Source: Escherichia coli (lineage in GTDB: Bacteria > Pseudomonadota > Gammaproteobacteria > Enterobacterales > Enterobacteriaceae). Taken from it: a stretch of DNA of 64,000 bases. The stretch lies in NCBI RefSeq assembly GCF_041886205.1, contig NZ_CP169031.1; one strand, 5' to 3'. Made by a program: the position numbers and the translations under genes. Below, in pieces: positions 26,266 to 28,971 of the stretch. Within the stretch, counting starts at the first letter, position 1. Each line of letters opens with the position of its first letter. Below the pieces are notes generated by a model that was not told the DNA's origin, did no database searches, and worked only from the letters and a program-made list of their open reading frames with translations.

Positions 26266-28971
26266 ATGAATGACGTTACAGTTGTTACATCAGTTACTTA
26301 CCCATCACCCGAGTCGTTGGCTCTGGTGGCTGATGTGCAATACCACGAACCATATCTGTCAGCCGCGCTAAACCGAAAATTCAGGGGGATTGTTGACCCG
26401 GGATTTTATGCCGGTTTCTTACCTAAGCCTGGCGGTGGGATGAACCTGTTAATCACCTCAGTGGATGGTGATAAAACCGCAGGCGCGGCGTCGGTGGATA
26501 TTGGTGAATTCTACCAGGTAACTATTCAGCAACGTAAGGATATTTCTCTTGCACTTAGTGCAGGCAAGAAATATGCAATTGTGCTGAAGGGAAGATACCT
26601 CCTTGGAGAAGATACCTATCAGGTGAATACCGCGTCACATATTCATGCGGCTGAATTTGTTGCCAGAACCTATACCGATTCATATCAGTTAGGAGATGGA
26701 GAGCTGCTTGTTTGTACGGTGAATATCCCTGCTGGCGTATCAGCCATTACCCAGGAGATGATTGATACATCCGAGCGTATTAACCGCACGATCGGCATTG
26801 ATATTTCAGACTCTGTAACCAGTAGCAGAAGTGATGTTGCTGCAAGTTCGCTGGCAGTTAAAAAAGCCTACGATCTGGCGAAAAGCAAGTATACGGCGCA
26901 GGATGCAAGCACAACGCAAAAGGGATTAGTTCAGCTCAGTAGCGAAACTAACAGCGACAGCGAAACAATGGCGGCTACCCCTAAAGCCGTTAAGTCTGTA
27001 AAAGATCTTGCTGATACCAAAGCGCCAATAGAAAGCCCGAGTCTGACAGGAACGCCAAGCGCGCCGACGGCAGCGCAAGGTACAAACAGCACGCAGATAG
27101 CAAATACAGCCTTTGTTAAGGCAGCTATAACTGCACTTATCAACGGTGCACCTGGCACACTGGATACACTTAAAGAAATAGCTGCTGCGATCAATAACGA
27201 CCCGAATTTCAGCACAACTGTCAACAATGCTCTGGCCCTTAAAGCGCCTTTAGCAAGTCCTGCATTAACGGGAATACCTACTGCGCCTACCGCTGCACAG
27301 GGTACGAATAACACGCAGATTGCTACGACCGCTTATGTAAGAGCTGCCATATCCGCACTGGTCGGCTCATCACCTGAAGCTCTTGATACCCTGAATGAGC
27401 TTGCAGCAGCACTGGGCAATGACCCGAACTTTGCGACAACAATGACAAATGCGCTGGCAGGGAAACAGCCACTTGATGCAACTTTAACCGCGCTTGCTGG
27501 TCTTGCGACAGGCGCAAATAAATTGCCGTACTTTACCGGTACAGACACTGTTTCTCAGACTGACTTAACGTCAGTCGGTCGCGATATTCTGGCCAAAACA
27601 AGCGTTCTTGCTGTTATCCAATACCTTGGTTTAAGAGAACTCGGTACCAGCGGTGAAAAGATCCCCCTGTTGAGCACGGCTAACACATGGAGTGCGCGCC
27701 AGATTTTCAACGGAGGGATCACCGGGGCACTGACAGGGAACGCCGACACCGCGACGAAATTGAAAACAGCACGCACTATTGGCGGTGTGGCATTTGATGG
27801 TACTGCGAATATTAATTTACCTGGTGTTAACGTTGCGGGTAATCAGAATACATCCGGTAACGCGGCTACAGCGACCAAGTTGCAGACAGCATGTACTATC
27901 AACGGCGTCTCGTTTGATGGTTCTAAAAATATTGAGCTAACGGCGGAAGATTTAAATCTACAGGAATTTATTAATAAAGCAAATAATGCCGTTCAGCGTT
28001 CAGGCGATATCTTGTCCGGCGGACTTACTTTTGAAAACGACTCAATCCTTGCCTGGATTCGAAATACTGACTGGGCAAAGATTGGATTTAAAAATGATGC
28101 CGACAGCGACACAGATTCATACATGTGGTTTGAAACAGGCGACAACGGCAATGAATATTTCAAATGGAGAAGCAAACAAAGCACCACAACAAAAGACCTG
28201 ATGAATCTTAAATGGGATGCTTTGTCTGTTCTTGTTAAAGCCCTTTTCAGCAGTGAAGTAAAAATATCGACAGTCAATGCACTGAGGATATTTAATTCAT
28301 CTTTTGGTGCCATTTTTCGCCGTTCTGAAGAATGCCTGCATATCATCCCTACACGAGAGAATGAGGGGGAAAATGGTGATATAGGGCCACTACGTCCCTT
28401 TACGCTTAATCTCAGAACTGGCCGCATAACTATGGGGCATGGTCTGGATGTTACAGGAGATATAACAACTAACGCCTGGGTGTATGCAAACAGGTTTGCT
28501 ATTAATAGTGGCTCAACCTCATGGATTGATATGCGAAACCAGAATGTCATTTTTGGTAGAAACGCAGTATCAACAAGTTCTGCGCAGGCTTTGTTAAGAC
28601 AAGACCATGCAGAACGCAAATTTTTTGTCGGTGGACTTGGTAACTACCAGTTTGGTTTTTACATGATTAATAACTCAAGGACAGCCAATGGCACCGATGG
28701 TCAGGCGTACATGGATAATAACGGTAACTGGCTTTGTGGCTCGCAAGTTATTCCTGGCAACTATGGCAATTTTGATTCCAGATATGTGAGAGATGTTCGC
28801 CTGGGTACGCGAGTTGTTCAATTGATGGCGCGTGGTGGTCGTTATGAAAAAGCCGGACACGCAATTACCGGATTAAGAATCATTGGTGAAGTAGATGGCG
28901 ATGATGAAGCCATCTTCAGGCCAATACAAAAATACATCAATGGCACATGGTATAACGTCGCACAGGTGTAA
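26266..28971 (+). CDS. S: Tail fibre protein S (constant Sc plus variable Sv)
   Basis: Likely start MNDVTV at 26266 (track ORF from 26179); tandem ~67-aa repeats; crosses cixL at 27614; the variable C-terminal part lies inside the invertible segment. Confidence 0.75.
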   Translation: MNDVTVVTSVTYPSPESLALVADVQYHEPYLSAALNRKFRGIVDPGFYAGFLPKPGGGMNLLITSVDGDKTAGAASVDIGEFYQVTIQQRKDISLALSAGKKYAIVLKGRYLLGEDTYQVNTASHIHAAEFVARTYTDSYQLGDGELLVCTVNIPAGVSAITQEMIDTSERINRTIGIDISDSVTSSRSDVAASSLAVKKAYDLAKSKYTAQDASTTQKGLVQLSSETNSDSETMAATPKAVKSVKDLADTKAPIESPSLTGTPSAPTAAQGTNSTQIANTAFVKAAITALINGAPGTLDTLKEIAAAINNDPNFSTTVNNALALKAPLASPALTGIPTAPTAAQGTNNTQIATTAYVRAAISALVGSSPEALDTLNELAAALGNDPNFATTMTNALAGKQPLDATLTALAGLATGANKLPYFTGTDTVSQTDLTSVGRDILAKTSVLAVIQYLGLRELGTSGEKIPLLSTANTWSARQIFNGGITGALTGNADTATKLKTARTIGGVAFDGTANINLPGVNVAGNQNTSGNAATATKLQTACTINGVSFDGSKNIELTAEDLNLQEFINKANNAVQRSGDILSGGLTFENDSILAWIRNTDWAKIGFKNDADSDTDSYMWFETGDNGNEYFKWRSKQSTTTKDLMNLKWDALSVLVKALFSSEVKISTVNALRIFNSSFGAIFRRSEECLHIIPTRENEGENGDIGPLRPFTLNLRTGRITMGHGLDVTGDITTNAWVYANRFAINSGSTSWIDMRNQNVIFGRNAVSTSSAQALLRQDHAERKFFVGGLGNYQFGFYMINNSRTANGTDGQAYMDNNGNWLCGSQVIPGNYGNFDSRYVRDVRLGTRVVQLMARGGRYEKAGHAITGLRIIGEVDGDDEAIFRPIQKYINGTWYNVAQV
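27037..27444 (+). repeat. Tandem duplication (~2 x 201 bp) inside the constant part of S
   Basis: Two consecutive ~67-aa units (SPSLTGTPSAPTAAQGTNSTQIANTAFVKAAITALINGAPGTLDTLKEIAAAINNDPNFSTTVNNALALKAP and ASPALTGIPTAPTAAQGTNNTQIATTAYVRAAISALVGSSPEALDTLNELAAALGNDPNFATTMTNALAGKQP). Confidence 0.6.
27614..27639. promoter_or_regulatory. cixL recombination site for Cin
   Basis: ttatccaataccttggtttaagagaa, similar to the gix/cix 26-bp consensus, within S at the Sc/Sv junction; start of the inverted homology with the Sv' 5' end. Confidence 0.65.

Follow-up and report, generated by a model that had tools for sequence, protein, structure and literature searches.

A diverged tandem repeat of a 74-residue unit in the constant part of a P1-type tail fibre gene S

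The tail fibre gene S encoded in the window (the whole stretch of 64,000 nucleotides of Escherichia coli contig NZ_CP169031.1 that was analysed) contains two in-frame, ungapped and consecutive units, b1 and b2, with a period of 74 amino acids (222 nt). The b1/b2 repeat of S in the P1 family is very probably an ancient in-frame tandem duplication of a structural module of the fibre shaft. The feature is already known as the repeated elements b1/b2 of P1, a sister phage-plasmid. Among related elements the number of units varies from one to four, and the make-up of the variant units supports unequal recombination between b1 and b2. For the window itself the result is of little importance, since it confirms a known annotated P1 feature and adds a small census of copy number.

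Gene S and the invertible operon

Gene S (26266-28971, forward strand) starts with the ATG at 26266 and encodes a protein of 901 amino acids, consisting of the constant part Sc and the currently attached variable part Sv. It shares 94.3% nucleotide identity with S of P1, the match covering 83% of the length of S, and the protein was assigned to PHROG tail fibre families. Its C-terminus matches the solved structure of the Mu tail fibre S (5yvq, E=1e-142), and the C-terminal part also matches the trimerisation domain of T4 gp34 (PF21446).

The N-terminal part Sc (26266-27626, forward strand) is collinear with that of P1 and P7, in the records of which it comprises the first 1361 nt of S and ends at the cixR crossover. 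All of the a and b repeats are located in Sc. Repeated elements of the a0/a1 type, which carry the Pfam Phage_fiber_2 motif, are located directly 5' of b1 (26854-27021, forward strand) and were recognised by the P1 annotation (a0 at nt 589-624 and a1 at nt 625-756 of S), by Pfam PF03406 (two stretches in S, the best being aa 215-254) and by the dot-plot, in which the offset of 44 pairs aa 184-208 of S with aa 228-252. The Cin crossover site cixR (TCCAATACCTTGGTTTAAGA; 27617-27636, forward strand) is located 149 nt 3' of b2, where Sc passes into Sv, and is an exact match to cixR of P1. Together with the start of S at 26266, it places the duplication in Sc of a P1-type S; the first-pass annotation had correctly put it in the constant part of S. 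Sv contains a separate repeat of 40 amino acids (GNADTATKLKTARTIGGVAFDGTAN / GNAATATKLQTACTINGVSFDGSKN; 27736-27933, forward strand; direct-repeat family D1) with 72% nucleotide identity and a spacing of 120 nt, which corresponds to the dot-plot offset of 40 and does not belong to the b1/b2 pair.

The other end of the invertible C-segment is marked by cixL (31624-31643, forward strand), again an exact match to the P1 site, and the segment is flanked by inverted repeats (27616-27770 and 31490-31644). The cin DNA invertase gene (31638-32198, reverse strand) was recognised by its translation (MLIGYVRVSTNEQ...), which is that of a serine recombinase, and by its position, which is that of P1 cin. 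The window thus carries the invertible operon of a Punavirus (P1-like) element, comprising R-S-U, the alternative U'-Sv' set, cixR, cixL and cin. It is 99.9% identical to the IncY plasmid p2RM9154-C1 of E. coli O145, with the C-segment inverted in comparison with that record.

Size, position and divergence of the units

Units b1 (PIESPSLTGTPSAPTAAQGTNSTQIANTAFVKAAITALINGAPGTLDTLKEIAAAINNDPNFSTTVNNALALKA; 27025-27246, forward strand) and b2 (PLASPALTGIPTAPTAAQGTNNTQIATTAYVRAAISALVGSSPEALDTLNELAAALGNDPNFATTMTNALAGKQ; 27247-27468, forward strand) comprise 74 amino acids each and form an array at 27025-27468, or 27022-27465 in the phase of the P1 annotation. A tandem duplication in the constant part of S had been described from the first reading of the sequence, and it is real: both of the peptides quoted there occur exactly in the S reading frame, as consecutive copies of one unit. 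The dimensions given at that time, a unit of about 67 amino acids (about 201 bp) and a span of 27037-27444, fall short of the actual period and array, and the description of the copies as near-identical was mistaken. The two units are identical in 49 of 74 amino acids (66%; BLASTP 97 bits, E=5e-34, no gaps) and in 139 of 222 nucleotides (62.6%). This nucleotide similarity, the lack of which had been named as grounds for refutation, is significant, as 10,000 shuffles of the DNA gave 57.1 +/- 6.5 matches and never more than 84, corresponding to a z of about 12.5 for b1/b2.

In the protein self dot-plot of S, which had likewise been suggested as a check, the top diagonal is that at offset 74 (score 104), followed by the diagonals at offsets 40 (score 88) and 44 (score 39), which represent other known fibre repeats. 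These diagonals were obtained by a BLOSUM62 diagonal scan in place of a BLASTP self-search, the latter having returned only the trivial self-match of S. At the DNA level the b1/b2 pair was missed both by Tandem Repeats Finder (minimum score 30) and by a seed-based repeat finder, because the two units agree at only about 63% of positions and share no exact run longer than 9 nt (unit positions 66-74, i.e. 27090-27098 in b1 and 27312-27320 in b2, forward strand).

It may be asked whether the similarity is a mere by-product of low-complexity composition rich in Ala, Thr and Pro. The units are indeed rich in A, T, P and N, and produced weak spurious Pfam matches (MtrD, Acyl-CoA_ox_N) that reflect composition. 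However, the BLASTP E value given above was obtained with compositional adjustment, and this result, the DNA shuffles and the exact 74-residue register found in thousands of proteins refute chance or low-complexity similarity, the likelihood of which is negligible.

Identity between b1 and b2 is 78% at each of codon positions 1 and 2, and 31% at position 3 versus the 26% expected from composition; synonymous sites are saturated (pS 0.80), and pN is 0.22. With third positions near chance, the duplication is ancient, and the units are kept alike only by selection at the protein level.

Number of units in P1/D6-like elements

Comparison of copy number among relatives, a further suggestion of the first reading, supported its view of the repeat as a length-variable module. 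P1/D6-like elements contain one, two, three or four in-frame b units, and the length differences of the variants are always multiples of 222 nt. Direct reading of the sequences revealed a single unit in three plasmids (records L007-L009 and L014), two units in the window, P1, P7, D6 and SJ46, three units in phi456 (L003), ETEC1720 unnamed5 and p1_035148 (L010 and L017), and four units in pB20159_2, pPSS-08-1_2 and pCombat11I9-3 (L011, L012 and L016). Plasmid pEC213_2 (L015) carries three complete units and the start of a fourth one at the end of the record.

In PLSDB, b2 is carried by 347 plasmids. A probe for the contiguous one-unit junction found it in 31 records, the hybrid unit of the phi456 type is present in 10 plasmids, and 12 more records of the D6 type have two or more b1-like units, the last figure being a count of places per record, as the probe for the D6-type extra unit is not specific to the junction (switch at about nt 25). 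A copy number other than two was found in about 15% of the 347 b2-carrying plasmids. Phage phi456, with its three units, forms plaques on MC1061 (PMC10967188).

The 1-, 3- and 4-unit alleles are very improbable as assembly artefacts caused by repeat collapse or expansion. Repeats are a classic source of assembly errors, and in some four-unit arrays the units are 99% identical over 222 nt; nevertheless, b1 and b2 are too different, at 63% identity, for an assembler to collapse them. The one-unit junction was found in 31 complete plasmids of E. coli, E. fergusonii and Salmonella submitted by numerous laboratories and matched the probe with 90-99.7% identity, so it has diverged since its origin, while the three-unit hybrid occurs in 10 plasmids and in one phage genome. 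The 222-nt register is kept in all alleles examined, and the S reading frame of one four-unit plasmid (L016), translated in full, is intact at 1139 amino acids. On these grounds (recurrent junctions, register and an intact frame) the artefact reading was rejected.

Hybrid units and the origin of the variants

Each variant unit is a clean mosaic of two parents, b1 and b2, in exact register and with a single switch point. The single unit consists of a b1 head (nt 1-36) and a b2 tail (nt 42-222), with the junction in the 5-nt run GCGCC (unit nt 37-41). The extra units, conversely, are b2 heads joined to b1 tails. The middle unit of phi456 follows b2 up to nt 65 and b1 from nt 75 to the end of the unit (nt 222), its junction falling on the longest shared run (9 nt), and in phi456 and ETEC1720 alike the switch from b2-like to b1-like sequence lies between unit nt 65 and nt 75-78. 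In the D6-type extra unit the switch is at about nt 23-26. Within the four-unit arrays, the duplicated middle units are 96.8-99.5% identical to each other.

As b1-head/b2-tail and b2-head/b1-tail units are both products expected of a misaligned exchange between b1 and b2, their presence supports unequal recombination, and this part of the first-pass annotation stands. Its wording as a hotspot applies only in a relative sense. Exchange of the RecA type should be rare in the two-copy state, because b1 and b2 share at most 9 identical bases. Each variant class has one junction common to many plasmids, which suggests a small number of founding events, the products of which then spread, rather than frequent switching.

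We propose that copy number would shift through misaligned, unequal exchange between units or through template switching from one unit to another. As long as the array consists of two diverged copies, such a change would need only 5-9-nt microhomologies and would seldom occur. A hybrid unit with 87-99% identity to its neighbour, once formed, might allow copies to be added or removed by ordinary homologous unequal crossing-over. Selection would probably let only in-register, in-frame products survive.

We give a little less than even chances to copy-number change by replication slippage or template switching at microhomologies, without homologous unequal crossing-over. The founding junctions are located in runs of 5 nt (GCGCC, nt 37-41) and 9 nt (nt 66-74), with another at about nt 23-26; efficient RecA-dependent exchange is usually said to need some 20-30 nt, much more than these runs offer. 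Since classical RecA exchange requires longer homology than 5-9 nt, 'unequal recombination' may here stand for slippage or illegitimate recombination. On the other hand, relaxed recombinases encoded by phages reportedly tolerate divergence, which counts against slippage, and the steps from three to four units join neighbours that are 87-94% identical, making homologous exchange plausible there. Slippage and homologous exchange are inseparable by sequence alone.

Another possible origin, which we regard as unlikely, is that b1 and b2 are related versions of a fibre module of wide occurrence and were brought together by module shuffling, and that the copy-number variants were likewise acquired via horizontal exchange. 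The module is very common and is found in many different fibre contexts, and the synonymous sites of b1 and b2 are saturated. The two units also have separate histories, as b1 of the D6 type differs from b1 of the window with pS 0.47 and pN 0.11, versus 0.13 and 0 for the respective b2 units. Furthermore, the b1-like tail of the middle unit of phi456 resembles P1 b1 (NDPNY) more closely than the first unit of phi456 (NDPNF), hinting at exchange between genomes. Against this, the local b1 and b2 types suffice to explain the variant units as mosaics, with no need of a third-party sequence, and the 66% protein identity between b1 and b2 resembles that of neighbouring units in other arrays. Because b1 and b2 are so diverged, with pS saturated, it is impossible to tell whether the pair arose by duplication in situ or by the fusion of related modules that came from separate fibres.

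Duplication in situ and shuffling end in the same architecture, and the dispute between them concerns history and not the identity of the feature.

Distribution, structure and possible role of the module

A profile of the unit had 44,198 matches among cluster representatives at E<=1e-3. The module is thus present in tens of thousands of phage fibre proteins. Its exact 74-residue register is kept across thousands of proteins, and tandem arrays reach nine complete units or more; one protein (P0001) contains nine complete units and a truncated tenth in tandem. The N-terminal half of the b unit also repeats alone in other fibres, in up to 22 copies per protein with a period of about 35-39 amino acids. 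No model of Pfam-A or NCBIfam matched the b units above threshold. Thus, with more than 44,000 cluster representatives and no Pfam or NCBIfam model, shafts of this kind are labelled just as "tail fiber protein", which gives the module some relevance for annotation.

The N-terminal half of the unit would be extended and rich in Pro and Thr (P-L-x-S-P-x-L-T-G-x-P-T-A-P-T...T-Q-I-A-T-T-A-F-V), and the C-terminal half is predicted to form three short helices with breaks at GAP/SSP and NDPNF. AF2 runs on the b1b2 monomer (alignment of 21 rows, pLDDT 39.9) and on a GGGGS-linked b1b2 pseudo-trimer (13 rows, pLDDT 30.6) both gave, with very low confidence, three helices per unit, spanning approximately residues 22-39, 44-55 and 60-73. 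In the homotrimer, each unit would lengthen, by a constant amount, the rigid shaft that separates the baseplate-proximal part from Sv, the exchangeable part that binds the receptor; the link from fold to length per unit is one that we infer.

More speculatively, the b unit might be a ubiquitous length module of the shaft. Its copy number would then act as an adaptive and not a neutral spacer dial that sets the reach of the receptor-binding tip, tuned for instance to how thick the O-antigen or capsule of the host is; we hold this to be rather doubtful. If true, the series of one to four copies in otherwise near-identical P1-like phage-plasmids would offer a direct test of how host range is related to fibre length.

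The fibres of P1 and P2 are being re-targeted for DNA delivery. The viable three-unit phi456 and the in-frame one- and four-unit alleles indicate that the shaft tolerates gain and loss of whole units, and the natural alleles supply defined junctions for altering shaft length. From an evolutionary point of view, the hybrid units preserve, in a clean and datable form, the trace of unequal exchange between diverged repeats, which used microhomologies of 5-9 nt and was followed by easier homologous expansion.

Comparison with known systems

The closest known system is gene S of P1, the GenBank records of which (M81956 and NC_005856) list the same 222-bp units inside Sc as "repeated element b1/b2"; the feature tables of these records (M81956; NC_005856 / AF234172) are the source for prior knowledge of the repeat. 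The likeness comprises the gene, the location in Sc 5' of cixR and the 222-bp period, and the window is collinear with the P1 order a0, a1, b1, b2, cixR. Between the window and P1, b1 differs in 12 of 222 nt (94.6% identical) and b2 in 20 of 222 nt (91.0% identical), whereas the identity between b1 and b2 is just 62.6%; the window units are orthologous to the matching units of P1. The differences from P1 are only allelic, apart from a different Sv, and it is p2RM9154-C1 and not P1 to which the window is 99.9% identical.

The Pfam Phage_fiber_2 family (PF03406, 'phage tail fibre repeat'), which corresponds to a0/a1 of P1, is also a short shaft repeat, located directly upstream (aa 184-252) and, like the b units, arranged in tandem in many fibres. 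It is, however, a distinct sequence family, and the isolated b1b2 sequence did not match PF03406 even at E<=10.

Parts of the unit are shared with several proteins of known structure, all of them trimeric or fibrous tail appendages. The C-terminal half matches the 'tail collar fibers gp4' (9d93) by sequence and FibU gp68 of 80alpha (6v8i), where density ends at residue 123 and the matching region is unmodelled. The N-terminal half matches residues 132-167 of the long tail fibre of phiTE (9cuy) and gp24 of cyanophage A4 (9k09). These are matches of local motifs (E values from 2.6e-11 to 6e-4), each protein sharing half a unit and none having the full 74-residue unit in tandem. The phiTE and cyanophage A4 papers cover the fibres in general terms only. 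A search of papers for motif strings such as ATTAFV returned only noise.

Shafts built of repeats are known in the T4 gp34/gp37, P2 H, Mu S and lambda Stf families, and gain and rearrangement of motifs is an established idea of how fibre genes evolve. The shafts of T4, P2 H, Mu S and lambda Stf are likewise modular and repetitive and precede an exchangeable receptor-binding tip; the 74-residue b module differs from them in combining its own N-terminal motif half with a putative three-helix C-terminal half.

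The b1/b2 repeat and its tail-fibre operon

The repeat lies within a P1-like phage-plasmid, in its tail-fibre operon. The tail-fibre gene S (26266-28971), an ORF of 901 aa from its ATG (MNDVTV...), is 94.3% identical at the nucleotide level to P1 S across 83% of its length, and P7, RCS47, SJ46 and D6 match it over the constant part. Both Cin crossover sites, cixR (27617-27636) and cixL (31624-31643), are identical to those of P1; the DNA invertase gene cin occupies 31638-32198 (minus strand). Over 20266-32212 the window shows 99.9% identity to the IncY plasmid p2RM9154-C1 of E. 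coli O145 (NZ_CP031351.1), except that the invertible C-segment (27617-31643), flanked by inverted repeats of about 155 bp (27616-27770 and 31490-31644), has the opposite orientation; the window S therefore consists of the constant N-terminal part (Sc) joined to the other variable part (Sv), and its product has 901 aa versus 975 aa in the plasmid. In that plasmid, a homologue of the baseplate protein gene bplA (3207-4640, window 23472-24905) is named 'bleomycin hydrolase' by RefSeq, probably an annotation error; for several S homologues of other plasmids, the name given is 'pyocin knob domain-containing protein' or 'beta strand repeat-containing protein'. On the minus strand, at 14899-14984 and 15052-15104, Rfam models detected a C4 antisense RNA with 70.8 bits and, with 56.2 bits, its a1/b1 target element. 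ARAGORN found no tRNA genes across the 64-kb window.

The tandem duplication proposed in the first-pass annotation is real, although it was mis-measured: the two peptides quoted there were both found and are consecutive copies of one unit, which measures 74 aa (222 nt) and not about 67 aa (201 bp). The copies occupy 27025-27246 (b1) and 27247-27468 (b2), and offset 74 ranks first in a protein self dot-plot of S. They align without gaps, with 49 of 74 residues identical (BLASTP E=5e-34). The nucleotide similarity, whose absence would have refuted the first-pass annotation, is also significant, with 139 of 222 bases identical against 57 +/- 6.5 in shuffled sequences (z of about 12.5), but it only mirrors that of the encoded peptides: identity is 78% at codon positions 1 and 2, compared with 31% at position 3 (26% expected from composition), and pS is saturated (0.80) at a pN of 0.22. 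Since the longest run common to both units is only 9 nt, neither Tandem Repeats Finder nor a seed-based repeat finder reported the pair.

The dot-plot contains two other repeats. Offset 44 corresponds to the a-type motif (P1 a0/a1; Phage_fiber_2, PF03406) at 26815-27021, directly upstream of b1, in which aa 184-208 weakly resemble aa 228-252. Offset 40 lies in Sv, where a tandem-like 40-aa repeat (GNADTATKLKTARTIGGVAFDGTAN / GNAATATKLQTACTINGVSFDGSKN) at 27736-27813 and 27856-27933 has 72% nucleotide identity and a spacing of 120 nt; a related copy is present on the opposite strand in the alternative Sv' (inverted pair 27838-27966 / 31012-31140, 88%).

Copy number among relatives

The units were counted with a profile built from the two copies and scanned over S genes of phages, plasmids and E. 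coli genomes. One unit is present in pCRECTL20-3, pLR-64-1_1, E. fergusonii p18B226LT3 and Salmonella pZ1323SSL0052-3; two in the window, P1, P7, D6 and SJ46; three in phage phi456, ETEC1720 unnamed5 and p1_035148; and four in pB20159_2, pPSS-08-1_2 and pCombat11I9-3, whose S ORF, the only one translated in full, is intact (1139 aa). At least three occur in pEC213_2: three are complete, and a fourth begins before the record stops. In every variant, the difference in array length is an exact multiple of 222 nt. In a PLSDB census with junction-specific probes and strict E-value cut-offs, b2 was found in 347 plasmids, a contiguous one-unit junction in 31, a phi456-type hybrid unit in 10, and two or more b1-like units in 12 D6-type records, so that at least about 15% of the plasmids do not have two copies; since the probes miss other types of junction, the number of variants is a minimum. 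Of the phage genomes deposited, phi456 alone carries a variant array, and the one-unit form was found in none of them. As phi456 forms plaques on MC1061 (PMC10967188), its three-unit fibre is therefore functional.

Compared position by position, the variant units are clean two-parent mosaics of b1 and b2. The single unit is b1 at unit nt 1-36 and b2 at nt 42-222, with the junction in a 5-nt run, GCGCC, common to both. In phi456 and ETEC1720, the middle unit consists of b2 at nt 1-65 and then of b1, starting at nt 75-78, with its junction on or adjoining the 9-nt longest common run, and the extra D6-type unit switches at about nt 23-26. A misaligned b1/b2 exchange would yield two kinds of product, as seen in these hybrids. 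Each variant class has one common junction, pointing to a small number of founding events. The two middle units of four-unit arrays are 96.8-99.5% identical, which would fit a later, easier homologous step. Thus, the comparison proposed in the first-pass annotation, which revealed relatives with one to four units and the hybrid units, supports the suggestion that the repeat is a length-variable module subject to unequal recombination. In phi456, the b1-like tail of the middle unit (2482-2703) has the P1-type NDPNY, versus NDPNF in the first unit (2260-2481); this suggests that two different P1-like genomes exchanged DNA when the triplication formed, or that recombination patched it later.

Distribution and possible role of the module

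A profile of seven distinct units gave 44,198 matches at E<=1e-3 among 1.84 billion cluster representatives, and 1,939 at E<=1e-30. Among the best 150 of the 44,198, 71 proteins contain at least two complete units, many at the exact 74-aa spacing, and one (P0001) has nine plus a tenth that is truncated. In many fibres, the N-terminal half (about 35-39 aa, PLxSPxLTGxPTAPT...TQIATTAFV) is repeated alone, with up to 22 copies per protein, or interleaved with full units, and, judged from these sequences, behaves as an independent repeat. Neither Pfam-A nor NCBIfam holds a domain model for the b unit; Pfam Phage_fiber_2 matches the upstream a-type repeat only, and PHROGs labels these proteins as tail fibres, nothing finer.

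The N-half, rich in Pro and Thr, is probably extended, and the C-half may form three short helices split by the conserved helix breakers GAP/SSP and NDPNF. Both AF2 attempts gave the same helix/extended pattern at unusable confidence (pLDDT 40 and 31); solved fibres match no more than half of the unit in sequence, and in 80alpha FibU the matching part is unresolved in the structure. Most likely, the b unit serves as a trimeric segment of the shaft, rigid and fixed in length, placed between baseplate-proximal S and the invertible receptor-binding Sv, in which case copy number would determine fibre reach.

Comparison with P1

Within Sc, the P1 feature tables (M81956, NC_005856) list 'repeated element a0', 'a1', 'b1' (222 bp) and 'b2' (222 bp). 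The P1 b1/b2 positions map exactly onto the window units, our boundaries being one codon out of phase, and the sequences differ at 12 of 222 nt in b1 and 20 of 222 nt in b2; the feature is therefore a sister element's version of the P1 b1/b2 repeat, which was already known. Of the P1-like plasmids matching S nt 1-690, roughly half diverge completely beyond this point, a different shaft region replacing the a/b repeats; thus, Sc is mosaic and not really 'constant' family-wide. To the P1 annotation, the present analysis adds the series of one to four copies with mapped hybrid junctions, and a module without a domain model.
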